From a bacterium (lineage in GTDB: Bacteria > Patescibacteriota > Patescibacteriia > Patescibacteriales > XYC2-FULL-47-12): a stretch of DNA of 64,000 bases. Where the stretch lies: contig JAUYLZ010000033.1 in NCBI GenBank assembly GCA_030698385.1, positions 9,905 to 73,904 of the forward strand. Reading direction: 5' to 3'. Positions 9,561 to 64,000 of this stretch are shown here, in pieces. Each line of letters starts with the position of its first letter. Position 1 is the stretch's first letter. Made by a program: the position numbers and the translations under genes. A model generated the notes under the pieces. It was given only the letters and a program-made list of their open reading frames with translations, was not told the origin of the DNA and did no database searches.

Positions 9561-10418
9561 ATGTCTTATCTAAAAGGAGTTTTTCTTGTCTTTTTGGCGA
9601 GAAAAAAAATAATTAATAGCCAGTTGTCTCTATTTAAATTTATTTTTATAGGGATTTTTTTATACTCAACTTTTCTGCCAAAAACTGTTCAGGCGAGCGC
9701 TGTGATAACTGAAAATATCTTTGCCAGCATAAATAATGAAAGAAAGAAAATAAGTCTCAATGACTTAACAATCAATCCCTTATTAAATCAGGCGGCCGCT
9801 CAGAAAGCTCATGATATTTTATCTCAAGAACGCTTCGCTCATAACTTCCCAGATATGAAATTCTCCGACTGGGTAAAAGAAACTGGTTATGAATATTCAG
9901 TAGTCGGAGAAAATTTGGCTATAAATTTTACTAACAACGACACCTTGTTTAACGCCTGGCTTTCTTCCCCGTCACACAAAAAAAACATTATACATCCTGA
10001 TTTTAATGAAGTTGGTTTGGCAGTAGTTGAAGGCAGTTGGTTTAATAATAATACTTCCGTAGTGGTGGCAATATTCGCAAGTCCAAAAATAGTAACCGCC
10101 TTAGAACAAACTGTTCCAACTACATTAGCAAGCAAACATAGGAGTTACTCTCCCCCGCTGCTGACATCCAACTTAGCTGAAAATTACTATTCTCATATTA
10201 ACTCAAATACTATCGAATTGGAATTTGCCGGCGCCAACCCAATCGTGCTTTCTGAAGTAGAAAAAAATAATACTGCCACAACATTTTATTTTGTTATGGC
10301 AGCCAAGGTCATGTTAATTTTTATGTTCTCAATGCTGATGCTTATGTCTATACTATATTACAGTTATTACTTTTCAAAACTAAACAAAAAAATACAACTG
10401 TTAAATAATCATCCATAA
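9561..10418 (+). CDS. membrane-anchored CAP/SCP (YkwD-like) domain protein
   Basis: 285 aa. N-terminal TM/signal. The SCP-like block (AHDILSQERFAHNF...GENLAINFTNNDTLFNAWLSSPSHKKNIIHPDFNEVGLAVVEG) is followed by a C-terminal hydrophobic anchor. Confidence 0.7.
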   Translation: MSYLKGVFLVFLARKKIINSQLSLFKFIFIGIFLYSTFLPKTVQASAVITENIFASINNERKKISLNDLTINPLLNQAAAQKAHDILSQERFAHNFPDMKFSDWVKETGYEYSVVGENLAINFTNNDTLFNAWLSSPSHKKNIIHPDFNEVGLAVVEGSWFNNNTSVVVAIFASPKIVTALEQTVPTTLASKHRSYSPPLLTSNLAENYYSHINSNTIELEFAGANPIVLSEVEKNNTATTFYFVMAAKVMLIFMFSMLMLMSILYYSYYFSKLNKKIQLLNNHP

Positions 10419-11707: not shown

Positions 11708-13306
11708 TTAAATCAACGACCTGCCGGTCATTTCCGGAGGTTTTTTTATATTCATTATTTTGAGAATCGTTGGCGCTACATCCGCCAGAATTCCCTGCGG
11801 TTTTAAAATACTCAAATCCGCGCCACTGATATCCGCTCGGCTTAATTTTTGCCCTTCCAAACTTTTATTTATTATTAACAAAGGAACAGGGTTAGTGCTA
11901 TGTTCTTTGGTGATTGATCCGGTCTGCATATTAAACATCTCCTCGGCGTTTCCATGATCGGCGGTTACAAGCATGGCGCCATCTTTGGCAATAATAATAC
12001 GAGTTAAATCACCAAGAATTTTGTCTAAAAAATTAATACCTTTTATCGTCGCGTCCATATCCCCCGTGTGACCAACCATGTCAGCATTGGCAAAATTAAC
12101 CAAAATAAAATCATATTTATCGTTGCTTAGCGCTTTTTTCAATGCCAAAAAAATTTCTGGCGCTGACATTTTCGGCTCATCGGCATATGACTCAACATTC
12201 ACAGAGGGAATGACTACCCTTTCTTCTCCAAGCATGGCTTCCTCAGCTCCGCCATTAAAAAAATAAGTTACGTGAGCGTATTTCTCAGTTTCGGCAATTC
12301 TTAATTGTTTTAAACCACTATCGGATAGTACTTGGCCCAATGTGTTCTTTATTGTCTCCGGAGGAAATGCGATGTGAACTGGCAGGTTTTTTTCATACTC
12401 TGTCATAGTGACAAAATATAAACTATCAAATTTTTTCATTCGCTCAAACTTATCAAAATCAGGTAAGACAAAAACCTTTGACATCTGACGAGCCCTGTCA
12501 GAGCGAAAATTAAAAAATACGACACTATCTTTATCGTCAATGGTTGCGATTGGCTTGTTGTTATTTGTTATTACTGACGGAACAAACTCTTCATCATAAA
12601 CTTTTTTACTGTAATAGTATTCAATTGCTTCGCCCGGAGTCGCAAAAAACTTATCGCATTTTCCCAAAGCAATGGCATTATATGTTTTTTTGACGCGATC
12701 CCAATGATTATTTCTATCCATTGCGTAAAAACGCCCTGAAAGAGTAGCTATTTTTCCAATTTTGTATTCAACAATTTTTTTCTCTACATCCATAACCAGC
12801 TGACGCCCGCTATTGTAGGGCATATCACGGCCATCTAAAAATAAATGTAAATATACTTGTTTTAATTTATGCTCAGAGGCAAAAGCCAACAGAGCTATTA
12901 AATGTTCAATCGCCGCGTGTATGCCGCCTGTTGATATCAAACCCAGGTAATGCAGCTTTGAATTATTAATCTTTGTATTTTCAATCGCCCCTTTTAAGGC
13001 GGAGTTATCAAAAAAACTATTATCACTGATTGCTTTGTTAATACGAGGCAAATCCTGATAAACTATTCTCCCTGACCCCAAATTCAAATGGCCAACCTCG
13101 CTATTACCCATAGCTCCCCAAGGCACCCCAGCCGCTTCACCAGCGGCGCTTAATATTGTGGCCGGATAGCGCGCTATTAAAGATTCATAATTCGGCAATT
13201 TTGTCTGAGAAATGGCATTACCTGAGTAAAATGGGGCTATCCCCCATCCATCCAAAACAACCAATAATACTGGCTTTGGTCTTTGTTTAAAATTTATATT
13301 TATCAT
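11708..13306 (-). CDS. gpmI: 2,3-bisphosphoglycerate-independent phosphoglycerate mutase
   Basis: 532 aa. LVVLDGWGIAP ... MGNSEVGHLNLGSGR (catalytic Ser) ... ADHGNAE, all iPGM signatures. Confidence 0.9.
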   Translation of the reverse strand: MININFKQRPKPVLLVVLDGWGIAPFYSGNAISQTKLPNYESLIARYPATILSAAGEAAGVPWGAMGNSEVGHLNLGSGRIVYQDLPRINKAISDNSFFDNSALKGAIENTKINNSKLHYLGLISTGGIHAAIEHLIALLAFASEHKLKQVYLHLFLDGRDMPYNSGRQLVMDVEKKIVEYKIGKIATLSGRFYAMDRNNHWDRVKKTYNAIALGKCDKFFATPGEAIEYYYSKKVYDEEFVPSVITNNNKPIATIDDKDSVVFFNFRSDRARQMSKVFVLPDFDKFERMKKFDSLYFVTMTEYEKNLPVHIAFPPETIKNTLGQVLSDSGLKQLRIAETEKYAHVTYFFNGGAEEAMLGEERVVIPSVNVESYADEPKMSAPEIFLALKKALSNDKYDFILVNFANADMVGHTGDMDATIKGINFLDKILGDLTRIIIAKDGAMLVTADHGNAEEMFNMQTGSITKEHSTNPVPLLIINKSLEGQKLSRADISGADLSILKPQGILADVAPTILKIMNIKKPPEMTGRSLI

Positions 13307-13312
13307 TTTTTT

Positions 13313-14899
13313 TTATTTTTTTAATAATGATTTACCAGTCATTTCCGAAGGTTTTTTCATATTCATCAACTGAAGTATGGTGGGGGCAACATCGCCAAGT
13401 ATTCCTTGTTTGCTTAAAACAAATTTTTTTCCTTTTAAATCGCTGTCGTAGAGGATAAATGGTACCGGCATAATTGAGTGTTGAGTGTCAATTTCACCTG
13501 TTTTTTGATTTAACAATCCTTCAGCATTGCCGTGATCAGCCGTAATAATAACGCGATAGTCAGCGCCGGCTTGTGCAATGATTTTACCAATACATAAATC
13601 CGTGATCTCACAGGCCTTAATGGTTGCTTTTAGATTTCCAGTGTGAGCAATCATATCGGGAGCGGCAAAATTAAGCGCGGCAAAATCAAATGACTTTTTT
13701 TTCATCATCTTAATAATCGTACTCGCGACTTTGAATGAACTCATCGCCGGCGCTTCTTCATAATTCTTTTTGTCCGGCGAATTTATGATGACGCGCTTTT
13801 CGCCAGCTACTGTGTCAGCGTAACCACCATTGAGAAAATACGTTACGTGCGCGTATTTCTCGGTCTCGGCTATATACCATTGGCGTAAGTCACGAAACTG
13901 CATAGGTAGTGTTTCTTTAACATCAATACTCGGATAGGCGGTAAAAATACTATCCAAATCCGGCCCAAAATCAGTCATCGCGACATAATTAAGATTATTA
14001 ATGACATTCTTGCGGTGAAATGAACCCGGATTCATTTTTTCAAAATCTTTTTGCACAAACGCCTTAGTAATTTGCCGAGCGCGGTCTGATCTTAGGTTAA
14101 AAAATATTACCGAATCATTATCTTGGATATGAGTTAAACGCTTGCCTTTTTCAAATATCACATAAGGCTCCATAAATTCATCGGTGTTGTTGTGATTGTA
14201 ACTCTGGGTAATAGCGTCAACAACTGACTCAGCTTTGTGCCAAGTGCATTGATCACAGGTCAAAACATCATAAGCCTGTTCGGTTATTGGCCAATTTTTC
14301 TTTCTGTCCATTGCATAATACCGGCCCATGACAGTCGCTATTTTCACGTTTGAACCCAAATAAGGTGTCAGGTCTTTGATTAATTTAAGAGCGGCATGTT
14401 GCGGTGAATCACGGCCATCAGTGAATAAATGTAAATAAACATTTTTTAAATTATTCATTCTAGTCATCTCCAGCAGAGCTTTTAGATGGTCAGGATCGCT
14501 GTGAGCGCTCATTCCGTTTGATAACAGCCCCATGATGTGCAGAGTTGACTTATTTTTTTTGACATGTCTAATTGACTGTAAAAAGGCGGGATTTTTAAAA
14601 AAAGTCCCATCCTTAATGGTCTTCGTTATTCTAATCGTATCCTGATCAACCACGCGGCCGGCGCCAATATTCATGTGGCCTGCTTCTGAATTCCCTTCTT
14701 GCAGATCTGTCAATCCCACGCATTTACCATGCGCGCATAGTTGCGCGTTAGGGTATTCCTTCTGCAAACCGTCCATAACTGGCGTATTAGCCAGCGCAAT
14801 CGCATTGCCTTCGCTAGGCGGCGCAATCCCCCAGCCGTCAATAATTACCAAAACAAGCGGTTTTGTTGTAAACTCTTTTTTTGTTTTTTTTGTGGGCAT
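13313..14899 (-). CDS. gpmI: 2,3-bisphosphoglycerate-independent phosphoglycerate mutase, divergent tandem paralog
   Basis: 528 aa. LVIIDGWGIAP ... EGNSEAGHMNIGAGR ... ADHGNAE. Roughly 40% identical to its neighbour. Confidence 0.85.
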   Translation of the reverse strand: MPTKKTKKEFTTKPLVLVIIDGWGIAPPSEGNAIALANTPVMDGLQKEYPNAQLCAHGKCVGLTDLQEGNSEAGHMNIGAGRVVDQDTIRITKTIKDGTFFKNPAFLQSIRHVKKNKSTLHIMGLLSNGMSAHSDPDHLKALLEMTRMNNLKNVYLHLFTDGRDSPQHAALKLIKDLTPYLGSNVKIATVMGRYYAMDRKKNWPITEQAYDVLTCDQCTWHKAESVVDAITQSYNHNNTDEFMEPYVIFEKGKRLTHIQDNDSVIFFNLRSDRARQITKAFVQKDFEKMNPGSFHRKNVINNLNYVAMTDFGPDLDSIFTAYPSIDVKETLPMQFRDLRQWYIAETEKYAHVTYFLNGGYADTVAGEKRVIINSPDKKNYEEAPAMSSFKVASTIIKMMKKKSFDFAALNFAAPDMIAHTGNLKATIKACEITDLCIGKIIAQAGADYRVIITADHGNAEGLLNQKTGEIDTQHSIMPVPFILYDSDLKGKKFVLSKQGILGDVAPTILQLMNMKKPSEMTGKSLLKK

Positions 14900-53314: not shown

Positions 53315-53459
53315 ATCTAAACTATACCAGAATTTTTTATTGAAATCAAATATATTTAAAAATTTGCAGATTAGCTATATTACGTTATACTATAAGTATT
53401 ATACTAAGTGTTTAACACTTAAAATCGATCTTTTAGAATTAAAGGAGAAAATAAAAATC

Positions 53460-54386
53460 ATGAAAAAAAAATTATGGATTGCGCTGACAATGACAAGGTT
53501 CTTTGCCATAAACTTGTTAGGTCTGCTCGGATTACTATGGTTTGCGGCGGGACTTGGTAATTTTGAAATTACCCTTCCCTTCATTGGCGCAGTTCCGCCA
53601 ATGAGCTGGCCGGCGATTTTTTGCAATATTGCTTTGTTCTTTATCATAATGTTTGGCATCACTGGCGGCTATCATCGGTATTTTTCTCATCGCACTTACA
53701 AAACCTGGCGCTGGTTCCAAGCAGTGCTAGCGCTCTTAGGTAGTCTGGCGGCGCAATGGGGTCCTATTTTATGGACGTACCATCATCGCCTGCACCATAA
53801 ATATTCAGATAAAGAGCTTGACTTGCATTCACCTGTACAAAAAGGCTTCTGGTGGGCGCATCTACTGTGGATATTCTTCCAAATAAAATTGCCGGAAAAA
53901 ATATACTATGCAAATGCAACTACACTACAACGAATATGGTACTGGATTGTTCCGCCAGCGAATGTCTACCCTAAAGAAGTTAAAGATTGGACACGGTTCT
54001 GGGAACTGCGTCTCCTGGATAGATGGTGGATTGTTCCACCGATACTGCTGGGAGTTGCGATGTATTATTTTTTAGGTCTCGCTGGCCTATTTGCGTTCTT
54101 TACCTGCATTGTATGCACGTGGCATGCGACCTTTACTATTAATTCGGTAACCCATATCTTTGGGTCGCGCCGCTTTGACACTAAAGATAATAGCCGCAAT
54201 GTCTGGTGGCTATGGCTATTTACCATGGGAGAGAACTGGCATAACAATCACCACGATAATCCTACAGCGGAACCTCAGGGAATGTATTGGTGGGAGATAG
54301 ACTTAACTCACTACATTATAGTGTTTCTTTCATGGATAAAATTTGTCCAAGAAATAAAAACACGCAAGACATTACAAAAAATATAA
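53460..54386 (+). CDS. membrane fatty acid desaturase (acyl-lipid/acyl-CoA delta-9-like, three His boxes)
   Basis: Start taken at ATG 53460 with RBS aaaggag at 53441-47 (track ORF begins at a TTG at 53340). His boxes HRYFSH, HHRLHH, HNNHH with 4 TM in the desaturase arrangement. Confidence 0.8.
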   Translation: MKKKLWIALTMTRFFAINLLGLLGLLWFAAGLGNFEITLPFIGAVPPMSWPAIFCNIALFFIIMFGITGGYHRYFSHRTYKTWRWFQAVLALLGSLAAQWGPILWTYHHRLHHKYSDKELDLHSPVQKGFWWAHLLWIFFQIKLPEKIYYANATTLQRIWYWIVPPANVYPKEVKDWTRFWELRLLDRWWIVPPILLGVAMYYFLGLAGLFAFFTCIVCTWHATFTINSVTHIFGSRRFDTKDNSRNVWWLWLFTMGENWHNNHHDNPTAEPQGMYWWEIDLTHYIIVFLSWIKFVQEIKTRKTLQKI

Positions 54387-54403
54387 CTAAAAAACATAGA
54401 TCT

Positions 54404-54441
54404 TTAACTCCGTTTGCCTCGCCGGTAACCGGAGTTTTTTT
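54404..54441 (+). terminator. intrinsic terminator after desaturase
   Basis: aactccg...ccggtaaccgg...cggagtt hairpin followed by T7. Confidence 0.5.
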
Positions 54442-54559
54442 ATAGCTTGAAAATATTGTAAAAATAATATATGGTTACTATACGTTCTTTTAAAACAAGA
54501 TAGTTTTTAAACTATTTTTAGATATATTTTTGAGATCAAAAAAAGATTGGAGAAAAAAA

Positions 54560-56038
54560 ATGACACAAAATAAGCAATTAAGGTTTAGAATGATTATCCC
54601 GGCTTTTCCGCGCAATAACATTTATACGCGAATTGCTAAAAAAACAACTTCTTTGGGGCCTGTCTTAGTGGCTTCCGCTGTAAAAAAATTTTTGCCCAAT
54701 TGGGCGGTAGAAATTATTGATGAAAATAATTATCATCATGGACCATTGGCTGCGGACAACAAACCGGATCATACAATTCTGCAACAAGAAGACCCTGCTG
54801 ATGTAGTCGGTTTTTATTGTGGACTAACATCGACCATGCTCCGTGTCTGGGAGTTAGCCCAATTCTATAAACAATCAGGGGCAATTACCCTCGCCGGCAG
54901 CTGGCATGTTAAAGCCCTACCGGAAGAATCTTTAGAAAAAAATATTGATGTTGTGGTAATCGGCGATGGTGAAAAAGCAATTATTGACATTCTCACAAAG
55001 TTTGAAAATCAAAAAGACATACCGAGTATTATTACTGCCGAAAATATTAATCTTGCCTGTGACCTGCCATTTCCTGATTTTGGAATTTTAAGATTCGCTA
55101 GAATGAAATTGTATCCGCTGGGCATGATTCGCGGCTGTTCAAAAAAATGTGAATTCTGTCTGGTAAAAGACAAACCACGCTGGGGAACGCCGGAATACTT
55201 ATATGATTTGATGAAATGGCTGGTAGAAACTAGGCGTGCAAATAAATTTTTCCTAGTGGATGATCGTCTGGAAGAAAATCGCGAAGGCTATCTAAAATTC
55301 TTTGGGCTAGTTGCGCAAAAATATGGCCATAGCAAAGAACTCACTGCTCAAGCCAGATTGGAGGCTATTGAAGATAGTGAGTTGATAACGGCAATGGTAA
55401 ACGCTGGTGTAAAAAATGTTTGTCATGGAGTTGAATCCCCTATCCAAGCAGAACTTAATGCCATGCAAAAAGGCCTAAAAGTACAAAAAATGCTTGGTTA
55501 CCTGAAAGCCTGGCGAAAACTTTTTTTTGTGCACGCTATGTTTATGTGGGGTTACCCTCTAAAAACCGGCGTCCAAATTTCCTACTCGGAAAGAATTAAA
55601 ACTTTTAAAAGCTTTATCCGCAAAGGAAAGCCAGATACCATTCAGATATTACGGACGGTTCCTTTGCCTGGGTCGGAACTAAGAGAACGGCTAGAAGCAG
55701 AGAATAGGTTATTTCCGCTCAACGAGGTCAACTGGGATAAGTATGACGGCAATTTTGTCTGTTTTCTGCCCGGTCCCAATGATTTATCTTTAATTGAGAT
55801 TCAAAAAGGGCCGACTAAACTAATGCGATGGTTTTATTACTCTTTGGCCTGGGTGGTTTTTCCTTGGCGGACGATAATGATGCCGTTTGATTACATCTTT
55901 AGAGGCTGGTCACAGTGGTACCGCGGCTGGCGCAATGATCTTGCAAAAATAGGCGCTAATATCCTTCTTTTCAAGGAAAGACAGTCTGAAAAAAAGTTTA
56001 TCAAATTTTTACGTAATAAAAAAAAACAAAACACATAA
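54560..56038 (+). CDS. B12-binding domain-containing radical SAM protein
   Basis: Internal ATG at 54560 preferred (MTQNKQ...). N-terminal cobalamin-binding-like Rossmann region. CxxxCxxC cluster motif GCSKKCEFC. ~490 aa, typical of class B radical SAM enzymes. Confidence 0.75.
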   Translation: MTQNKQLRFRMIIPAFPRNNIYTRIAKKTTSLGPVLVASAVKKFLPNWAVEIIDENNYHHGPLAADNKPDHTILQQEDPADVVGFYCGLTSTMLRVWELAQFYKQSGAITLAGSWHVKALPEESLEKNIDVVVIGDGEKAIIDILTKFENQKDIPSIITAENINLACDLPFPDFGILRFARMKLYPLGMIRGCSKKCEFCLVKDKPRWGTPEYLYDLMKWLVETRRANKFFLVDDRLEENREGYLKFFGLVAQKYGHSKELTAQARLEAIEDSELITAMVNAGVKNVCHGVESPIQAELNAMQKGLKVQKMLGYLKAWRKLFFVHAMFMWGYPLKTGVQISYSERIKTFKSFIRKGKPDTIQILRTVPLPGSELRERLEAENRLFPLNEVNWDKYDGNFVCFLPGPNDLSLIEIQKGPTKLMRWFYYSLAWVVFPWRTIMMPFDYIFRGWSQWYRGWRNDLAKIGANILLFKERQSEKKFIKFLRNKKKQNT

Positions 56039-56135
56039 TAGCATACACGCCTCGGAATAAATATTCCGAGGCTATATTTTTTTTAAATAATTAATTGGCT
56101 TGCTTTTTTTCACCAAGTATCTTATAATATCACTC

Positions 56136-57509
56136 ATGAACTACACCTCATTAAAATTAAAAAAATATATTTTAATTCTTGGAGATATTGCGGTTCTTTA
56201 CTTGTCGCTATATCTCACGCTGATAGTTCGCTACGCGGAGTTGCCGACGGCCAACCTTTGGCAAGAACACTTCTGGCCGTTCACCGTTATTTTTTTTGTA
56301 TGGCTGATTATTTTTTATTTAAATAATCTATATGATTTAACTCTGGCGATTAATAACGTCAAATTTTACGGGCTTTCAGCGAACGCTCTTTTTTTTAATT
56401 TTTTAATCGGTTCCGCGTTTTTTTACCTCATCCCGCAGATTGGCATCACGCCAAAAAGAAATCTTTTTATTGATATTATAATCACCGCGATTATTTTTAT
56501 TCTCTGGAGACTAGTTTATAATGTGATATTAAAAACGTATCTGCCGAAAAGCAATGTCGCCATCATCGGGCTTAACGATCAGGTGCGCGAAATTATCAAG
56601 CATTTTCACAACTACCCTCATCTTGGATTCAAAATTGCCTGTTTGCTTTATGATAAAGAGGTCTATGAACAAGGCTTGTATAATATAAAAATTTGCAAAA
56701 ATGTTGATAATATAAAAGCAGAAATAAAAAATAATAATATTTCTATTGTTGTTCTCGCTGAAGATTTGCAAAAATCACAAGAACTTAGATCACAGCTATT
56801 TTCAGCCATTCACCTGGGAGTGAACTTCACCAGCTTAAATCATTTTTACGAAAAAATTATGGGAAAAATTCCCGTACAGGCGATTAACCAGATGTGGTTT
56901 TTGGAAAATTTAAACGAGGGCAGCAAGTTCTGGTTTGATTATTTTAAGCGTCTCTACGACGTTATTTTAGCTTTTGCCATTCTAATTATAACTATTCCCT
57001 TCTGGCCGATAATCGGTCTGATAATTACTTTGGAAAGCCGCGGCTCCATGTTTTACTCACAAAAAAGAGTCGGCATAAACAACAAAATTATTCATCTGAC
57101 AAAATTCCGCACTATGATTGAAACCGGAAATACCCGCCGACCGACAGTACCCAACGACTCGCGCGTAACACGCCTTGGCGGCTATCTGCGCCGCATGCGC
57201 ATTGATGAAATACCGCAGGTCATAAATATCATCAAAGGCGACATGAGCTTCATCGGCCCGCGCCCGGAACGACCGGAACTTGTGGTAAACTTACAAAAAG
57301 AAATTCCTTTTTATAACGAGCGCACGCTGGTTCTGCCCGGCGTTACCGGCTGGGACCAGGTCTGCGGCGAATATCATTCGCCCTCCACTGAAGATACAAT
57401 AAAAAAACTCCAGTATGATTTGTTTTATATAAAAAACAGATCTGTATTTTTAGACCTGTTGATTATTTTAAAGACATTAAGAACGGTTGTTTTGGGAAAG
57501 GGGCGATAA
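56136..57509 (+). CDS. polyprenyl-phosphate glycosyl-1-phosphate transferase (WbaP/bacterial sugar transferase family)
   Basis: Start at ATG 56136 (MNYTSLK...). 4-5 N-terminal TM. C-terminal sugar transferase domain (KRLYDVILAF ... YSQKRVGINNKIIHLTKFRTM ... DEIPQVINIIKGDMSFIGPRPERPE). Confidence 0.8.
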   Translation: MNYTSLKLKKYILILGDIAVLYLSLYLTLIVRYAELPTANLWQEHFWPFTVIFFVWLIIFYLNNLYDLTLAINNVKFYGLSANALFFNFLIGSAFFYLIPQIGITPKRNLFIDIIITAIIFILWRLVYNVILKTYLPKSNVAIIGLNDQVREIIKHFHNYPHLGFKIACLLYDKEVYEQGLYNIKICKNVDNIKAEIKNNNISIVVLAEDLQKSQELRSQLFSAIHLGVNFTSLNHFYEKIMGKIPVQAINQMWFLENLNEGSKFWFDYFKRLYDVILAFAILIITIPFWPIIGLIITLESRGSMFYSQKRVGINNKIIHLTKFRTMIETGNTRRPTVPNDSRVTRLGGYLRRMRIDEIPQVINIIKGDMSFIGPRPERPELVVNLQKEIPFYNERTLVLPGVTGWDQVCGEYHSPSTEDTIKKLQYDLFYIKNRSVFLDLLIILKTLRTVVLGKGR

Positions 57510-57513
57510 AAAT

Positions 57514-58731
57514 TTATTTAATTGAGTTAAATAAATATATAAATAAATTTTTATCTGCCTTGCTAAATTTGATTCTGCGCCGTGCCATGACTTTTCCAGC
57601 AGTAACCATAGCTTTATCAAGTTGATAGCTCATCTCGTTTTTACCCGCTTCCAGCCAAGAAAATGAAGGTATGTATTTTGGCAAATAACCGGCGCCAAAA
57701 ATGTTACTGGAAAAACCCACAGTTGTGCCGGTATTAAACATGGTATTGATTCCGCTTTTAGAATGATCGCCCATGAATAAGCCGACAAAAGTTAACCCGG
57801 TGTTAATTTTATTTTTACCGTCAAAAATAATATCAACATTGCTGTAATTATTCTTTAAATCACTATTATTGGTATTTGCGCCCAAATTGCACCAAGAGCC
57901 GATATAGGCGTGGCCCAAAAAACCATCGTGCTGCTTGTTGCTATAGTCTAAAATGATGCTTTCCTCAACTTCACCGCCGACTTTGCAAACCGAACCAATG
58001 GAGGTGCCTTCATAAATTTTAGCGCCGACTTTTATTTTAGACTGTGGACCAATATAGACTGGGCCAATGATGACGCTGTTAGGCATGACTTCCGTCTTTT
58101 CCTCAATAACCACTGGACCGTCTTCAGCGTTAATCACTGCACCCGGCATTATTTTACTGCCTTGTCCTATAAAAATATTTTTTTTATTTATTAAATACGC
58201 GCCAGGATAAACTTGGCCGGCAATTTTCCCCAATGAAAAACTTTTCGCGTCGCTAATTATTTGTTCGCTGTTGCCGTTAACTAAATCCCAAATATAGTTT
58301 GCTAATTTTACTTTAACTTGAATTTTTTTAAGTTTATTTTCTTGTAAACTAAAATAATTATCTGTATTATTAATAAGCGCTAAATTTTCTTTGGTTAAAT
58401 ATGCCGCCACTAACTCTTGTCTTACATAAAATACGGCATCAGTTTTCGTCTTAGTAACTGTCTGCAGAAAATTTTTATCTGCAACTACTCTTCCATTGAT
58501 AAAAAGCGTAGCCTCGGAATTTTTTTTCTGAATAAATAATTTGAAATTCTGCTTTTTTGCCATCGGTTGCAGATATTTTCGGCAATGATAACAATAGCTG
58601 GCCCGAGGCTGGTATTTAATAATTTTTTGAGCCAAAGTAAAAATACCGCAACGCATTTCCCAGACGGGTCGTGAAAGCGTCAAAGGATAAAAATTATTCG
58701 CTTTTTTATCTTCAAAGATACAAATTTGCAT
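57514..58731 (-). CDS. GlmU-like sugar nucleotidyltransferase/acyltransferase with left-handed beta-helix (hexapeptide repeats)
   Basis: 405 aa. N-terminus IFEDKKANNFYPLTLSRPVWEMRCG resembles sugar-nucleotidyltransferase starts. Long C-terminal run of [LIV]-G-x-x-x-x hexapeptides (IGQGSKIMPGAVINAEDGPVVIEEKTEVMPNSVIIGPVYIGPQSKIKVGAKI...). Confidence 0.55.
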   Translation of the reverse strand: MQICIFEDKKANNFYPLTLSRPVWEMRCGIFTLAQKIIKYQPRASYCYHCRKYLQPMAKKQNFKLFIQKKNSEATLFINGRVVADKNFLQTVTKTKTDAVFYVRQELVAAYLTKENLALINNTDNYFSLQENKLKKIQVKVKLANYIWDLVNGNSEQIISDAKSFSLGKIAGQVYPGAYLINKKNIFIGQGSKIMPGAVINAEDGPVVIEEKTEVMPNSVIIGPVYIGPQSKIKVGAKIYEGTSIGSVCKVGGEVEESIILDYSNKQHDGFLGHAYIGSWCNLGANTNNSDLKNNYSNVDIIFDGKNKINTGLTFVGLFMGDHSKSGINTMFNTGTTVGFSSNIFGAGYLPKYIPSFSWLEAGKNEMSYQLDKAMVTAGKVMARRRIKFSKADKNLFIYLFNSIK

Positions 58732-58828: not shown

Positions 58829-59542
58829 TTAATATTTTAATAAGCGTGTTAACAAAAATTCTGCTACTTCCAAATCATACGGCACGTTGATGTCTATTGA
58901 CCTGTTCGCCGGCATTATATATGCCCGGGAAGTCTTGCCAAATGAATCACCTTGCATAATAAGCGATGTTTTAGTTAGATAAACTGCGCAATTGCGTTTA
59001 TATGCTTTTACGCCTTTCTGCCTTGATAAAGACTGGCGGCCTTCGTCAGTAAAAAGAGGTTTAATCAAATTGTTTTTTGTAATAAGTTTTATTTTAGACG
59101 GATCAAAATCAACTAACTCTACCATGCTCATAACTGAATCGGCATTTGAATCAACTGCAATTTTAATACATTCATCAATATCTTCAGCTGATCTTAGGGG
59201 AGAAGTTGGTTGTAAAGTCATAACATAATCATACGAGGCTTTTTGATTTTCCTTAAGCCACCGCAAAGCATGCTGAACTACCGGCATATGAGGCGTATCA
59301 TGCTGCGCCAGCGCTGCCGGACGCATAAATGGCACCTTGCCGCCGTAAATCTTTGCGACTTCAGCAATTTCGTCATCATCCGTTGAAACAATACAGTTCG
59401 TCAAAAGAGCGCTGGCTTGAGCCACCTGTAAAGTATAAGCAATCATTGGCCTTCCTCCTAACAAAACTATATTTTTCTTCGGGATGCTGGTAGAGCCGCC
59501 GCGAGCCGTTATTAAACCTAAAATTTTTTTATTTTTATACAT
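58829..59542 (-). CDS. CMP-sugar synthetase (acylneuraminate/nonulosonate cytidylyltransferase family)
   Basis: 237 aa. LITARGGSTSIPKKNI N-terminal signature of the NeuA/KdsB cytidylyltransferase family. Overlaps the neighbour by 1 bp. Confidence 0.8.
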   Translation of the reverse strand: MYKNKKILGLITARGGSTSIPKKNIVLLGGRPMIAYTLQVAQASALLTNCIVSTDDDEIAEVAKIYGGKVPFMRPAALAQHDTPHMPVVQHALRWLKENQKASYDYVMTLQPTSPLRSAEDIDECIKIAVDSNADSVMSMVELVDFDPSKIKLITKNNLIKPLFTDEGRQSLSRQKGVKAYKRNCAVYLTKTSLIMQGDSFGKTSRAYIMPANRSIDINVPYDLEVAEFLLTRLLKY

Positions 59543-59543
59543 A

Positions 59544-61055
59544 TTATTTAGTGCAGTCGCTGGAACTGCGAATTAATATGGCGTAACTGTCAATTGTTTG
59601 ATCAAGCTGATAACAACTATAATCAAGATCATGCAACCCCGCCTCTTTACTTAAATATACCGCGGGCGAGATCAACATGTCATATTCACCGCGCTCAATT
59701 GCTGTTCTAATTTCTCTGCCGAGACTTAGCTTTTCATTTATCCTAATATATTGATAAAAATTTTCATTCGGATATAAGTATGCAAGTTCAGATGCGTTAT
59801 AAAAAACGACGCTAGTTGATGGTTTGATGGTTTTTAAATACTGACCGAGAGGAGTTATTTTATCCGGTCTATACCCCCACTCTTCATTACCGAGATGAAT
59901 AAACTGAACTGCCAGCAATAACCCAACGGCGACAACAGCTAAATCTTTCCGCCAATTTAAAAATTTAACTATGTAAAGCACGGCTGCCGGTAGAAAAATA
60001 AAAAGCAAGACATGGGCCGGAAAAAAATAACGATACCAGCCTGGTGTACGCAGATAAGCGCCGATTGTCAACAAAGAAAAACAGAACACAATGATCTCAA
60101 CGCTATAAATTTTTTCTTTCTTTTTAAATTTAATGATTAAAAAAAACAAAAAAACCGTGAGAAGCGCGCTAAAATGAACCGGCGTTGACTCCATAAAAAA
60201 TCTAAAAAAGTTAGAGGATAACAAATTTAATATTTCCTCAGCCGGCAGTTGATAAGGATTGCTGTAAAAAGAATACATTTCTGCCCAGTTAATGGCGCCG
60301 CTAAATTGCGTCTTCACCCAGATAACTAACGGCGCTATAAAACCGATTGCTCCGCTTAAAAAAGTGTAGGGCAATTTTTTCCAAAAATGAATTTTAAAAA
60401 TAACGGATACTAATACTGCCGCGGCAATTATTAAAAAAGACGGCTTTGTGGCGGCAGCCAAACCAAAGCCCAGCCCGGCTAGAAAAGCGTAAATTTGACG
60501 CTGATTGGCGCCAAACTTTCTGTCCATTTCTTCAGTCAGGTGCATAAAAAACATGCCAAAGGTAAAATAAAACAGTCCCGGCACCTCACCAATAACTGAC
60601 TTTCCGTTGCCGTAAAGCGGGGCAAAGGTGGTAAGTAACAGTGTAGCAGCCAGCGCTAAATAGCCGCCATAAAGCCTTTGGACCAGTAGATAAAAACTTA
60701 AAGTAAAACCAATAATAAAAAGCGCCATTATGACGCGAGCTCCAAATATACTCTGTCCGAAAAATTTAACCAGAAAAGCCTGCGGCAAAAGCAGTGGATA
60801 GCCAACTGTAACCAGTGATAAGTCGCTGTAACTGTCAGGACTAAGCTGAACGCCAAATACTCCGTTATCGGCCAGCGTCCGCCCGGCATGTAAGAATATT
60901 CCTTCATCAAACCAAACTGCAGGCTTACTGGTTAAATTGTAAAAACTGGCGGATAGAACAATAGCCGCCGCGAAAATACCAAGTAAGATTTTTACCTGAT
61001 TTGTTTTCAGCGTTAAATTTTTAAATTTATATCTATGCATAATAAGCCTTATCAC
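59544..61055 (-). CDS. GT-C fold glycosyltransferase (ArnT/PMT-like, GT83/GT39 family)
   Basis: 503 aa, ~11 TM. N-terminal PAVWFDEGIFLHAGRTL (DE motif in first periplasmic loop) typical of ArnT/PMT glycosyltransferases. Confidence 0.7.
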   Translation of the reverse strand: MIRLIMHRYKFKNLTLKTNQVKILLGIFAAAIVLSASFYNLTSKPAVWFDEGIFLHAGRTLADNGVFGVQLSPDSYSDLSLVTVGYPLLLPQAFLVKFFGQSIFGARVIMALFIIGFTLSFYLLVQRLYGGYLALAATLLLTTFAPLYGNGKSVIGEVPGLFYFTFGMFFMHLTEEMDRKFGANQRQIYAFLAGLGFGLAAATKPSFLIIAAAVLVSVIFKIHFWKKLPYTFLSGAIGFIAPLVIWVKTQFSGAINWAEMYSFYSNPYQLPAEEILNLLSSNFFRFFMESTPVHFSALLTVFLFFLIIKFKKKEKIYSVEIIVFCFSLLTIGAYLRTPGWYRYFFPAHVLLFIFLPAAVLYIVKFLNWRKDLAVVAVGLLLAVQFIHLGNEEWGYRPDKITPLGQYLKTIKPSTSVVFYNASELAYLYPNENFYQYIRINEKLSLGREIRTAIERGEYDMLISPAVYLSKEAGLHDLDYSCYQLDQTIDSYAILIRSSSDCTK

Positions 61056-61065
61056 TACTTATTTT

Positions 61066-62142
61066 TTAGTAAGCCCTGTCCTGATCTCCTCCCCCCTTAG
61101 TAGTATACCATTTCTTTGAATCTACTCTTGGTTTATTGTTAACCTTAAAAACAAAGTTTATAAAATTTTTACCCTTTAGATCCAAAGGGTTAAAGCGATT
61201 CGGCAAATATTTATAATAATTTTTATTGCAATTAACAAATCCCAGCTTCTGCAGACTATTTAAATGATAATCTCCGGAAAAAAAATAATCTATAAAATAA
61301 ATATTTTGATTTTTAAAATAATTAATTAAACTCTCTAAAAAAAATTTTTCGGTCTCGTCAAAAGAAATAAAATCTATAATGCGTGCGACTGGAAATTCAC
61401 CCCCCCCTTCTCTTCTTATTACAGCAAATGACTTAATCAAATTTTCAGATGTAAGTATGAATATCTCATAATTAATCAAAGGATGTTTAAAGTACCGCCA
61501 ATTTAAATAAGCTTCTGAACGCTCAACGCTTAAAGGGTATTTTTTTAACATATTTTCGCTGTTAAAAAAAACGTTTAATCTGTTATCAAAACTGTCTATT
61601 TTTTTAAAATTGTCAGAATATTTATTTTCATAGTCTAAATTTTCGAGTGCTTCACTGTTTGTAATTTTCAGATCTTTCAAACCGTCAAATTTTTTTATAC
61701 TGGAAACATTATAAATAAACACGTAGCGATTTAAATTAAATCCCCTCCACCCTCGGCCAGTAAATAGCTTCATGGCATCTTCATTTAAACCATGGTCGCA
61801 GGCTAGCGGACTAATCTTTTCAGCTTCACGCAGCAATAAATAACCTAAACCAAAATTTCTTAAATCTTTTTTTACGATTAAATTTGCTAAGCTAGTGCAA
61901 TTTATTTTAGCATTAAAATAATTAAATTTTAATACGGTCATGCCAAAAACTCCAATTAAAGAGCCCCCTCCACTAAAAACTCCTAAAATTGAAAAATTAT
62001 TGTTTGCCAACGGAAATTCGCCAAACTGCCAATGAATGTATTTGGGGTCAGTCAATATATGTGATGGTCCATAGTTATCACGATTAAAATCAAGTAATTT
62101 TTCTTCTTCACTTTTTTGTAAAAATCTTATTTTGATGTCCAT
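61066..62142 (-). CDS. two-lobed GNAT-fold (FemAB/Acetyltransf_6-like) acyl/aminoacyl transferase, putative
   Basis: 358 aa. N-lobe LANLIVKKDLRNFGLGYLLLREAEK resembles GNAT motif A. A second GNAT-like lobe is in the C-terminal half. Overlaps the carrier-protein gene by 16 bp. Confidence 0.4.
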   Translation of the reverse strand: MDIKIRFLQKSEEEKLLDFNRDNYGPSHILTDPKYIHWQFGEFPLANNNFSILGVFSGGGSLIGVFGMTVLKFNYFNAKINCTSLANLIVKKDLRNFGLGYLLLREAEKISPLACDHGLNEDAMKLFTGRGWRGFNLNRYVFIYNVSSIKKFDGLKDLKITNSEALENLDYENKYSDNFKKIDSFDNRLNVFFNSENMLKKYPLSVERSEAYLNWRYFKHPLINYEIFILTSENLIKSFAVIRREGGGEFPVARIIDFISFDETEKFFLESLINYFKNQNIYFIDYFFSGDYHLNSLQKLGFVNCNKNYYKYLPNRFNPLDLKGKNFINFVFKVNNKPRVDSKKWYTTKGGGDQDRAY

Positions 62143-62381
62143 TGAATTATTTTTTTTGATATATTATCTATTGAATTAAAGTTTTCCGGAGTTAAGCTTA
62201 ATATATCAATTTCAATTTTAAATTTTTTTTCAATATAATCTATCAAACTAAACATCGTTAAAGAGCTCACTATCCCCTCTTTTACAAGATCACGCTCATC
62301 ATCTTCTATTGTAAAACTGGTCGCTTTAATTAAATAATCTCTCAAATTTTTTTTTATTTCTATCAAATCTATATTACTCAT
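62127..62381 (-). CDS. DltC-like aminoacyl/acyl carrier protein
   Basis: 84 aa. KEGIVSSLTMFSLIDYIEKKFKIEIDILSLTPENFNSIDNISKKII aligns with D-alanyl carrier protein DltC ([28 protein letters not shown]...IIAKV). The phosphopantetheine Ser lies in the SSL position. Confidence 0.6.
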   Translation of the reverse strand: MSNIDLIEIKKNLRDYLIKATSFTIEDDERDLVKEGIVSSLTMFSLIDYIEKKFKIEIDILSLTPENFNSIDNISKKIIQWTSK

Positions 62382-63903
62382 AATTTTTTTTTAATGTTTC
62401 TCTGTCAATTTTACCTGTACTTGTTTTAGGTAACAATGACAGAAAATGAAATTTACTTGGAATCATATAATATGGTAAAATTTTAGCAAGATCTGCGGAA
62501 ACCTGTTCAGATGATAAACTCTCTTTAGATGCGATAAAAGCTGTTAAATCTACTGCATTATTAAGTTCTCTAAAAATAATTGTTGTTTCAGTTACATAAT
62601 CTAATGAATAAATCGCTTTTTCAATTTCGCCAACTTCAATACGATACCCCATTCTCTTAAATTGATCATCTTTACGACCGATAAAACTGTAATTGCCATT
62701 TTCATCAAGATAAACTAAATCACCGGTTTTATATACGATATCTTTATATTTACTATTGAATGGATTTTGAATAAAAACTTCCCTAGTCTTTTTTTCATTG
62801 CACCAGTAACCCGGACTAAGGCAGGCGCCCCTGATAAAAAGCTCGCCGCTTGATTTTCTTTCCGCCTTTCGTCCATCTGCATCTAAAGCAAAAATTTCCG
62901 CGTTCGCGCACGATTTGCCGATTGGAACTGATTTATCTACTTCTTTCGGAACTTCCTTAATTCTATAAAAACTGCATTGAACCGTAGCCTCGGTGGGCCC
63001 ATACATATTAATAAATTCTTTATCCGGAAAAATCTTCATCCAATCTCTTAAATACTTAACCGGAAAAACTTCACCATTGAAACATATACTTCTGACTTTT
63101 TTTAATCTGCTTGGATCTATACTGCCTGCTTGAAAAAGATAAGAAAGCAATGACGGCACTGAATTCCAGATTGTAATTTCTGTCTTTTCTATGTAGTCCA
63201 CCAACGCTCCCGGAAAAACCGATAATTTTTCGGGAATTAAAACCAATGTTGCCCCGCTTTTTATTGATGAATAAATATCAAAAGTTGATAAGTCAAAATG
63301 AAAAGGAGGATGCGCCGATAATTTGTCTGCAGCCGTTATTTTTAGTTCTGATACCGACCATTCAGCCGCATCAATTACATTACGATGCGTAATCATTACT
63401 CCTTTGGGCGTGCCGGTCGAACCTGAGGTGTAAAAAATATATGCTAAATCGGAATCAATAGACTGATAATTTGGGTTTAAATTGCTTTGACTAGTTATTT
63501 GAGCATTGACCGCATCACTATCAAGAGAATATAACTCAATATCTTTTGCCGTCATTTTTTTTATTTTGTCTTCTGTTTCATCTTCATATAAAACAATTTT
63601 TGGCTTGGCATCATTGACAATTTTCTCTAATCTCTCATAAGGAGAATTCGCATCCAGAGGCACATATATGGCATCGGCTTTTAAAATGCCAAAAATAGTT
63701 GCTAAGGATTTAATTGATTTATGCAGACAAAAACAAACTCTGTCTCCATGTTTTATATCCAAATGTTTTAGATAATTAGCTATTTGATTAGCCAAGCTGT
63801 TCAAATCAGAATAATTAATAATTTCTTCATTAAAAATGGCCGCGATTTTATGCGGTTGTTTGATTGCCTGTTCATCCAGATATTGTTGAAGTAAATATAT
63901 CAT
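62374..63903 (-). CDS. DltA-like amino acid adenylation enzyme (AMP-binding, ANL superfamily)
   Basis: 509 aa. AMP-binding signature IFYTSGSTGTPKGVMITHRNV, YGPTE, GELFIRG, and C-terminal PKTSTGKIDR lysine motif. Length and organisation match DltA. Confidence 0.8.
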   Translation of the reverse strand: MIYLLQQYLDEQAIKQPHKIAAIFNEEIINYSDLNSLANQIANYLKHLDIKHGDRVCFCLHKSIKSLATIFGILKADAIYVPLDANSPYERLEKIVNDAKPKIVLYEDETEDKIKKMTAKDIELYSLDSDAVNAQITSQSNLNPNYQSIDSDLAYIFYTSGSTGTPKGVMITHRNVIDAAEWSVSELKITAADKLSAHPPFHFDLSTFDIYSSIKSGATLVLIPEKLSVFPGALVDYIEKTEITIWNSVPSLLSYLFQAGSIDPSRLKKVRSICFNGEVFPVKYLRDWMKIFPDKEFINMYGPTEATVQCSFYRIKEVPKEVDKSVPIGKSCANAEIFALDADGRKAERKSSGELFIRGACLSPGYWCNEKKTREVFIQNPFNSKYKDIVYKTGDLVYLDENGNYSFIGRKDDQFKRMGYRIEVGEIEKAIYSLDYVTETTIIFRELNNAVDLTAFIASKESLSSEQVSADLAKILPYYMIPSKFHFLSLLPKTSTGKIDRETLKKNYE

Positions 63904-64000
63904 GTAACTTATTAATCAAGTAATTAAACACATAGCTATCGCTATCTCACTTGTGTGCGCTATTGATATAAGACATTTTTGCTTTTCGCCTTTATAATAA

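Follow-up and report, generated by a model that had tools for sequence, protein, structure and literature searches.

The DNA analysed here, a stretch of 64,000 nucleotides from contig JAUYLZ010000033.1 (hereafter the window), carries at its end a minus-strand cassette of four genes: a phosphopantetheinyl transferase (PPTase, mostly past the window end), a stand-alone adenylase, a small carrier protein and a soluble tandem-GNAT acyltransferase of an unannotated family, here called GNAT2 (Table 1). On balance, the sequences, the predicted fold of GNAT2 and the gene context favour a cytoplasmic, carrier-protein-dependent N-aminoacylation that diversifies a nonulosonic (sialic-acid-like) sugar or an amino-sugar precursor. 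The solubility of the proteins, the presence of a PPTase in the cassette, the accompanying nonulosonic-acid genes and a cytoplasmic CE4 deacetylase together point to an intracellular reaction in which a sugar precursor is N-acylated.

In the proposed mechanism, the dedicated PPTase would convert the 84-residue carrier into its holo form, and the adenylase would activate one alpha-amino acid with ATP and thioesterify it onto the phosphopantetheine arm of the carrier. The N lobe of GNAT2 would bind the loaded arm, and the aminoacyl group would pass to the free amine of an amino sugar from the same operon. Candidate acceptors are a nucleotide-linked 2,4-diamino-2,4,6-trideoxyhexose or a legionaminic-type nonulosonic acid itself. 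The acceptor amine would most likely be exposed beforehand by the co-conserved CE4 deacetylase. The cassette-linked NeuC-type epimerase and CMP-synthetase would process the bulkier modified sugar, and the product would be placed on a surface glycan.

The adenylase matched the AMP-binding family (PF00501, 280 bits) and, at 379.4 bits, exceeded the 317.4-bit cutoff of TIGR01733, the model for amino-acid adenylation domains; it fell below both DltA cutoffs (TIGR01734, 307.6 against 559.85 bits; NF003417, 336.7 against 476 bits). In a search of the PDB, adenylation (A) domains of nonribosomal peptide synthetases (NRPSs; LgrA, PltF, TycA and GrsA) outscored DltA, the best matches being LgrA and PltF. 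The specificity code was read against a GrsA-PheA fragment, checked against 1AMU (100% identity, residues 184-526), and its ten residues were DLFNCNMVQK, with Asp235 and Lys517 kept. In the Stachelhaus code, Asp235 (for the alpha-amino group) and Lys517 are the signature of alpha-amino-acid substrates. With these two residues and a TIGR01733 score above cutoff, the protein is an NRPS-type amino-acid adenylation domain, and fatty-acid or aryl-acid specificity was rejected on the same grounds. Membership of DltA/DltC was likewise rejected, from the curated cutoffs and the absence of dltB and dltD: no MBOAT or DltD-like Pfam family occurs among the annotated genes from window position 53340 to about 10 kb past the window end, nor in the Pfam-annotated related loci.

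Set against the codes of characterised domains, DLFNCNMVQK shares only DLFN with the bacterial ones for Ala and Cys, N-M-V with that for Thr and four of ten positions with that of DltA. The Phe, Asn and Met predicted to line the pocket may, speculatively, favour a small side chain. Adenylases from related loci of the Candidate Phyla Radiation (CPR) are 46-54% identical to that of the window, with a code of the form DLFN-(F/C/L)-N-(M/L)-VQK in which the first Asn becomes Asp in three loci. A near-invariant code despite this degree of A-domain divergence indicates a single conserved alpha-amino-acid substrate.

The carrier protein scored 16.7 bits with PP-binding, under the Pfam cutoff of 20.8, and was matched by NCBIfam models for acyl carrier proteins (ACPs), peptidyl carrier proteins (PCPs) and DltC at 1e-4 to 1e-6 and by type II PCPs in the PDB at 5e-6. 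Ser39, in the sequence GIVSSL, aligns with the phosphopantetheinyl serine of ACP, DltC and type II PCP models and structures; this serine is invariant and a PENFNS motif is conserved in 12 orthologues. The protein is acidic (pI 4.9). PP-binding carriers are four-helix proteins of about 80 residues with a conserved serine at the start of helix 2 and a partner PPTase; the protein fits this class as a probable carrier and is closer to type II PCPs than to DltC. An ACPS-type PPTase gene lies directly upstream of the adenylase in all related loci with a sufficiently long contig.

The N lobe of GNAT2 contains the pantetheine-binding motif R-x-x-G-x-G (R95, G98 and G100) between beta4 and alpha3; this motif (in general beta4-R/Q-x-x-G-x-G/A-alpha3), together with a GNAT fold, places the protein in the GNAT superfamily. 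In comparisons of the predicted fold, Eis and N-myristoyltransferase (NMT) were closest, with NMT the top match, and the model is that of an Eis/NMT-like tandem GNAT, not of a FemAB protein. GNAT2 was not placed among the FemABX aminoacyltransferases, which have a FemAB Pfam domain, a Fem-type fold and an aminoacyl-tRNA donor; no FemAB signature was found in it. With a pI of 9.05 the protein is basic; many of its Arg residues are invariant, and it ends in an invariant tail, WYTTKGGGDQDR, the family form of which is WYxTKGxGDQDRP. No membrane segment or signal peptide was detected in GNAT2, its single hydrophobic peak being a pair of predicted beta-strands. A carrier-protein thioester is predicted as its acyl donor from the synteny with adenylase and carrier and from natural fusions (described below).

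The original prediction had the three genes as an adenylase for amino acids, a carrier protein and a transferase with two lobes of GNAT fold, coupled in function and set in a glycan locus, and the models, fold and synteny uphold this. The two findings that were to overturn it did not materialise: the 358-residue protein has a transferase fold, and the adenylase keeps the amino-acid signature instead of being specific for a fatty acid. The family labels fared less well. The adenylase had been called DltA-like and is better matched by NRPS A domains, the carrier had been called DltC-like and is nearer to type II PCPs, and of the label FemAB/GNAT-like for the transferase the GNAT part stands and the FemAB part does not. 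Of the domain matches it expected from profile searches, AMP-binding was confirmed, PP-binding was sub-cutoff with other carrier models matching, and FemAB was absent.

Three co-directional, overlapping minus-strand genes are present as had been noted, with overlaps of 8 bp (adenylase/carrier) and 16 bp (carrier/GNAT2) when the open reading frames (ORFs) are read on the minus strand. On the identical public contig (L011), the gene caller placed the carrier start at a TTG five codons inward, giving 79 residues; with this start the adenylase-carrier spacing is a 7-bp gap instead of an 8-bp overlap, and the packing is tight both ways. The ACPS gene occupies positions 9644-9988 of that contig, which correspond to window 63916-64260. 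Downstream of GNAT2, gaps of 10, 1 and 97 bp precede the GT-C protein, the CMP-synthetase-like gene and the alternative GlmU gene, respectively; the last of these supplies the nucleotide-sugar precursor.

Table 1. Features of the cassette and adjoining genes in the window
Feature	Position	Strand	Basis or remark
PPTase (Pfam ACPS, 114 aa), 3' part with the final ~28 codons and the TGA stop (63918-63916)	63916-64000	minus	remainder past window end
NRPS-type adenylase, stand-alone, 509 aa	62374-63903	minus	PF00501, TIGR01733, PDB matches
Type II carrier protein, 84 aa	62127-62381	minus	ACP/PCP/DltC models, type II PCPs in PDB
GNAT2, soluble tandem-GNAT acyltransferase, 358 aa, unannotated family	61066-62142	minus	GNAT fold and motif
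Polytopic GT-C-like glycosyltransferase, 503 aa, same operon	59544-61055	minus	weak PMT_2 match
CMP-nonulosonic-acid synthetase-like cytidylyltransferase, same operon	58829-59542	minus	CTP_transf_3; PseF model 147 bits, sub-cutoff
Alternative GlmU-type UDP-GlcNAc diphosphorylase/acetyltransferase	57514-58731	minus	TIGR03991, 437 bits against a cutoff of 225
Polyprenyl-phosphate glycosylphosphotransferase	56100-57509		

The cassette is the tail of a nonulosonic-acid operon and not a free-floating element of a glycan-assembly locus. In the order of transcription, the operon begins with CTP_transf_3, NeuB, NeuC, a short hexapeptide acetyltransferase, a DegT aminotransferase and a PseB-like 4,6-dehydratase. 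It continues with a HisF/HisH-like pair, the CE4 deacetylase, a second NeuC, a methyltransferase and then the PPTase, adenylase, carrier and GNAT2, which are followed in the window by the GT-C-like membrane protein, a second CMP-synthetase-like gene and the alternative GlmU. NeuB scored 443 bits with TIGR03569 (cutoff 400) and the two NeuC-type hydrolysing epimerases 420 and 373 bits with TIGR03568 (cutoff 236); the DegT aminotransferase (PseC/LegC-like) and the PseB-like dehydratase were both below their equivalog cutoffs. NeuB, NeuC, CMP-synthetase, 4,6-dehydratase and aminotransferase thus stand in one cluster, as in a nonulosonic-acid locus. No PseG or PseH was seen in the operon, and NeuC and NeuB with a hexapeptide acetyltransferase are, by established pathway knowledge, the pattern of a legionaminic-type route. 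The CE4 polysaccharide deacetylase of the operon has no signal peptide.

NeuC and the CMP-synthetase are each present twice in the operon (L011 1-2830 and 7812-8963, including CTP_transf_3; one synthetase is window 58829-59542). One NeuC and one CMP-synthetase copy are the orthologues that accompany the cassette in other genomes, suggesting that the modified sugar has a parallel branch of its own. The HisF/HisH-like pair (WbuZ/WbuY-like) lies past the window end at L011 5425-6833, with WbuZ at 282 bits and HisH above cutoff. Such pairs are associated with acetamidino groups (glycosyl amidation); no WbuX/PseA-type amidotransferase was seen in the 14 kb examined.

A scan of one genome per species gave nine related loci, in Saccharibacteria, Parcubacteria, Harrisonbacteria and unclassified CPR. 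Contig look-ups and a degenerate DNA pattern of the C-terminal motif gave nine more (two further contigs and seven metagenome contigs), all CPR; the pattern by itself matched no more than nine further contigs, likewise of CPR origin. The order PPTase-adenylase-carrier-GNAT2 was found in every related locus (about 17) where the contig extends far enough, with stop and start codons mostly overlapping; the same order in so many independent loci is not due to chance. In most related loci an orthologue of the window CMP-synthetase comes after the cassette. Orthologues of the cassette-proximal NeuC and of the window CMP-synthetase lie within 10 kb in seven loci (L002, L004, L005, L006, L008, L009 and L010), in three of them directly after GNAT2, and L015 has a NeuC-type gene only, without the CMP-synthetase orthologue. 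A CE4 deacetylase homologue abuts the cassette in L002/L022 and L015 and is nearby in L004.

Two of these loci carry additional carrier-related genes. In L013 (11129-14086) and L004 (11109-12900) the gene immediately after GNAT2 encodes an FkbH-like protein (523 aa, without a recorded Pfam match). In L013 a second small carrier (82 aa), a MaoC dehydratase and a short-chain dehydrogenase come next; in L004 the FkbH-like gene and a small carrier-like ORF, the only two features looked for there, were found. The FkbH-like protein and second carrier form a second carrier-based module, perhaps for a different acyl group. In the parcubacterial locus L008 (6054-7079 and 9179-10000), a divergent second GNAT2 paralogue lies upstream of the PPTase and a gap of 822 bp separates carrier and GNAT2.

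A profile search of 1.8 billion representative proteins gave 221 relatives of GNAT2 at E<=1e-30 and 2,725 at E<=1e-10; nothing was added by a second protein search, word-indexed and run with a profile of 103 sequences. Natural fusions were of three kinds: carrier-GNAT2 (P0034, P0089, P0091 and P0074), FkbH-HAD-carrier-GNAT2 (P0088 and eight relatives; P0206 is of this kind) and acyl-AMP-ligase-GNAT2 (P0103, a metagenomic protein of 866 aa whose ligase is without the Asp235 'FD' motif and has no carrier domain between it and GNAT2). These fusions argue that GNAT2 is supplied with its acyl donor by a carrier or an activating module; P0103 suggests an adenylate or CoA, and not a carrier, as the source of the acyl group in some family members. 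The FkbH-carrier-GNAT2 protein P0206 and a split version of it (FkbH P0267 beside carrier-GNAT2 P0091) are encoded just downstream of a PglF-like dehydratase, NeuB, NeuC and CTP_transf_3. In both loci (L027 and L028) a MaoC dehydratase and a CE4 deacetylase follow, the latter homologous to that of the window operon.

Distant GNAT2-like genes without an activating module are paired with the same deacetylase family on plasmids of Escherichia albertii and in E. coli, where the pair ends a prophage, and in an exopolysaccharide locus of Azospirillum a GNAT2-like copy lies near a polysaccharide deacetylase only weakly related to this family. In the E. coli FDAARGOS_1277 chromosome (L029 11953-14756), the GNAT2-like gene (24% identity to window GNAT2) and the CE4 deacetylase stand at the end of a prophage tail-gene block and are split by IS1. 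The same pair was found on E. albertii plasmid p3RM15115 (L025 11627-13652) and is carried on 62-kb plasmids, the deacetylase ORF being missing from the plasmid gene table. A DNA search of an E. coli collection with the E. albertii GNAT2-like gene returned the prophage copy only. The pair looks like a mobile 'deacetylate and re-acylate' module for surface glycans.

Two links hold across unrelated lineages: one ties GNAT2 to a carrier or activating module, the other ties it to a CE4 deacetylase and to genes for nonulosonic acids or amino sugars. A broader reading, which we put forward tentatively as a possibility somewhat short of an even chance, is that GNAT2 founds a widespread and unannotated family of N-acyltransferases of the tandem-GNAT type. 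Acting with CE4 deacetylases, the members of this family would swap the N-acetyl group on nonulosonic acids, or on related amino sugars, for other acyl groups from dedicated activating modules. The acyl sources in this broader reading would be aminoacyl groups from adenylase and carrier, glyceroyl-type groups from FkbH and carrier, and other acids from an acyl-AMP ligase.

Several observations weigh against N-aminoacylation of a sugar precursor by the cassette. To our knowledge the code DLFNCNMVQK equals no known code, which leaves room for a non-proteinogenic substrate. L003, L007 and L013 are without NeuB, NeuC or CMP-synthetase within 10 kb on either side, or within the shorter contig available, and do carry other amino-sugar genes. 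The deacetylase is adjacent in some cassette loci only (that of the window, L002/L022 and L015, with the L004 copy more distant), and the operon's own hexapeptide acetyltransferase could fill the N-acyl position. Distant relatives in L012, L026, E. coli and E. albertii have no adenylase or carrier nearby, so carrier dependence is not superfamily-wide. The linkage might also be an ester, in which case GNAT2 would use the carrier-bound aminoacyl group to acylate a hydroxyl, either on the nonulosonic acid or on a neighbouring sugar, as in the 8-O-(N-acetylglutaminyl) pseudaminic acid of Campylobacter jejuni. Amino-acid esters of pseudaminic acid are known (Pse5Am7Ac8GlnNAc; PMC3068675), the characterised carrier-dependent aminoacyl GNAT SbzC is an O-acyltransferase (PMC6331615) and the context evidence is equal for both linkages. 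The recurrent, cross-phylum pairing of GNAT2 relatives with CE4 N-deacetylases is nevertheless more easily explained by an amine acceptor, and the closest folds, Eis and NMT, are those of N-acyltransferases; an ester is considered unlikely. GNAT2 could instead be an ordinary acetyl-CoA-dependent N-acetyltransferase that acetylates, for example, the amine of a carrier-bound or sugar-bound amino acid, the aminoacyl group being transferred by another enzyme. Its classical R-x-x-G-x-G motif and the relatives without adenylase or carrier would agree with such a role, as would the N-acetyl-aminoacyl groups present on many glycans (PMC10609480). Among the genes conserved with the cassette, however, there is no other candidate for the transferase, and the fusions with carrier, with FkbH-carrier (a glyceryl donor, with no amine to acetylate) and with acyl-AMP ligase point to a carrier-borne acyl group as the donor of GNAT2, which makes plain acetylation quite unlikely.

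In the original prediction the module was of the Dlt/Alm type and aminoacylated a surface glycan or glycolipid, with the GNAT in place of the MBOAT or LPLAT transferase. As a Dlt/Alm analogue it would esterify a completed polymer or a glycolipid of the surface, with either D-alanine or glycine. The activation logic (adenylase and small carrier) is indeed the same, the DltA and DltC models are significant though sub-threshold, and the genes lie in a glycan locus with a polytopic GT-C protein adjoining. This scheme was abandoned as very unlikely. The adenylase is far under the DltA equivalog cutoffs, is better matched by NRPS A domains and has Asn at the A301-equivalent position, where DltA has Cys. 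No MBOAT or DltD-like gene is present in the interval given above, GNAT2, which has neither a membrane segment nor a signal peptide, cannot reach an extracellular polymer, and the genes conserved alongside encode a PPTase and cytoplasmic enzymes of sugar precursors, among them the CE4 deacetylase and those of nonulosonic-acid synthesis. The cassette could also be a minimal NRPS-like pathway to a small soluble metabolite, or a Fem-like system for aminoacylation of peptidoglycan or protein, that merely sits beside glycan genes. Natural products are made by modules of adenylase, carrier and GNAT (PMC6331615), and the top fold match, NMT, acylates protein N-termini. We regard both as highly improbable given a single co-directional operon with 1-97-bp gaps in the window, the linkage to amino-sugar or nonulosonic-acid genes in most loci and in two unrelated lineages, the lack of a FemAB signature and the small size of CPR genomes, in which no other biosynthetic genes are conserved with the cassette.

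The remainder of the window encodes housekeeping proteins (RRF, LepA, RecJ, MurJ, DNA polymerase III delta', enolase and phosphoglycerate kinase, PGK), which identifies the DNA as chromosomal. The only record of the exact 358-residue GNAT2 is a 'hypothetical protein' from an unclassified metagenome-assembled genome, and its close relatives are all from CPR/Patescibacteria; the source is an uncultured, probably ultra-small (CPR) bacterium. No GNAT2 paralogue was found elsewhere in the window, where the two other ORFs of 358 aa encode a bPH_2 protein and a nucleotidyltransferase. Next to enolase and PGK, at 11708-14899, cofactor-independent phosphoglycerate mutase is encoded twice in tandem, by paralogues of 532 and 528 aa. 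A membrane protein of the fatty-acid desaturase family and a B12-binding radical SAM enzyme (53340-56038) lie immediately upstream of the polyprenyl-phosphate glycosylphosphotransferase gene. CPR genomes are usually without fatty-acid synthesis, and a desaturase is hence unexpected in a putative CPR genome.

Nonulosonic acids (pseudaminic acid, legionaminic acid and relatives) occur on flagella, S-layers, capsules and O-antigens and bear N-acyl groups such as alanyl, glyceroyl, hydroxybutyryl and acetimidoyl, which shape immune recognition and phage binding. We know of no assigned enzymes for the installation of most of these groups. Knowledge of enzymes that modify nonulosonic acids has been described as scarce and as a major challenge (PMC5378307). 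Literature searches returned no paper on nonulosonic acids in CPR/Patescibacteria, on a connection between these sugars and adenylation, ACP or N-acyltransferase modules, or on cassettes of the present kind. The PPTase-adenylase-carrier-tandem-GNAT cassette, often with a deacetylase, is a portable and testable candidate for one class of decoration, and the wider GNAT2 family suggests a general deacetylate-and-re-acylate route. It is also indicated that CPR bacteria, whose surfaces mediate an episymbiotic lifestyle, invest in elaborately modified sialic-acid-like sugars. If the proposed N-aminoacylation is correct, a tandem-GNAT member would be added to the very small set of carrier-protein-dependent GNATs. 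If the family-level reading is also correct, it would provide a genetic basis for unexplained non-acetyl N-acyl groups, as in N-alanyl legionaminic and N-glyceroyl pseudaminic acid, and would predict amino-acid-bearing sialic-like sugars on the CPR/Patescibacteria surface. An FkbH-domain gene is present in C. jejuni's locus for flagellar glycosylation (PMC7099621).

A chemical precedent for N-acylation of this kind is that of E. coli O161, which has N7-D-alanyl legionaminic acid, Leg5Ac7(D-alanyl) (PMC7685785, PMC10609480). It is likewise a legionaminic-type acid with an amino acid as N-acyl group, the transferase being proposed to act instead of or after the N-acetyltransferase step. Lea3 is the proposed, uncharacterised alanyltransferase, and, unlike for the present cassette, no set of adenylase, carrier and PPTase is mentioned for it in the review passages searched (PMC7685785). 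Deacetylation of an N-acetyl amino sugar followed by re-acylation of the amine, which the pairing of CE4 deacetylases with GNAT2 relatives would suggest here, has mechanistic analogues in LpxC/LpxD and MshB/MshC; the enzyme families (LpxC, the left-handed beta-helix protein LpxD and the ligase MshC) are unrelated. LpxD uses an acyl-carrier-protein donor.

DltA/DltC (D-alanylation of teichoic acid) and AlmE/AlmF/AlmG (glycylation of lipid A) share with the cassette, as predicted here, the ATP-dependent activation of a small amino acid by an AMP-forming adenylase, a thioester on a carrier of about 80 residues and the decoration of an envelope glycoconjugate. The cassette differs from them in failing the DltA models, in having no DltB (MBOAT), DltD or AlmG (LPLAT), in its soluble GNAT transferase and in its predicted product, an amide on a cytoplasmic sugar precursor instead of an ester on a finished polymer or lipid A. 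GNAT2 is 9-12% identical to the Eis-like tandem GNATs (Eis, MAB_4324c and MshD) and to NMT, and is about 30-40 residues shorter than Eis; the family-specific invariant C-terminal sequence and the predicted carrier-protein thioester donor set it apart from both.

The closest precedent for the transfer itself is the SB-203208 pathway, in which SbzB, SbzG and SbzC are adenylase, carrier and GNAT and beta-methyl-Phe is moved from the carrier (PMC6331615). A GNAT fed by an aminoacyl carrier, which the original prediction had offered as a new solution, thus has a precedent, and the cassette does not represent a new principle. Other carrier-dependent GNATs (SbzI, FeeM and GdvG/AprG) are single-domain proteins of antibiotic pathways (PMC6331615, PMC11685415). 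As in SbzB/SbzG(K)/SbzC and SbzL/SbzG/SbzI of altemicidin/SB-203208 synthesis, a stand-alone adenylase and a free carrier accompany a GNAT that takes, or here is predicted to take, its acyl group from the phosphopantetheine arm and not from CoA, for transfer to an acceptor nucleophile. In the Sbz systems the acceptors are not sugars of surface glycans but azatetrahydroindane nucleoside antibiotics, the present cassette has a PPTase of its own in addition, and GNAT2, unlike the single-domain SbzI, is a tandem GNAT of 358 residues with a conserved C-terminal tail; no sequence relationship was detected. What is new, relative to these systems, is the unannotated tandem-GNAT family, the four-gene cassette with its own PPTase and the predicted sialic-like sugar-precursor target.

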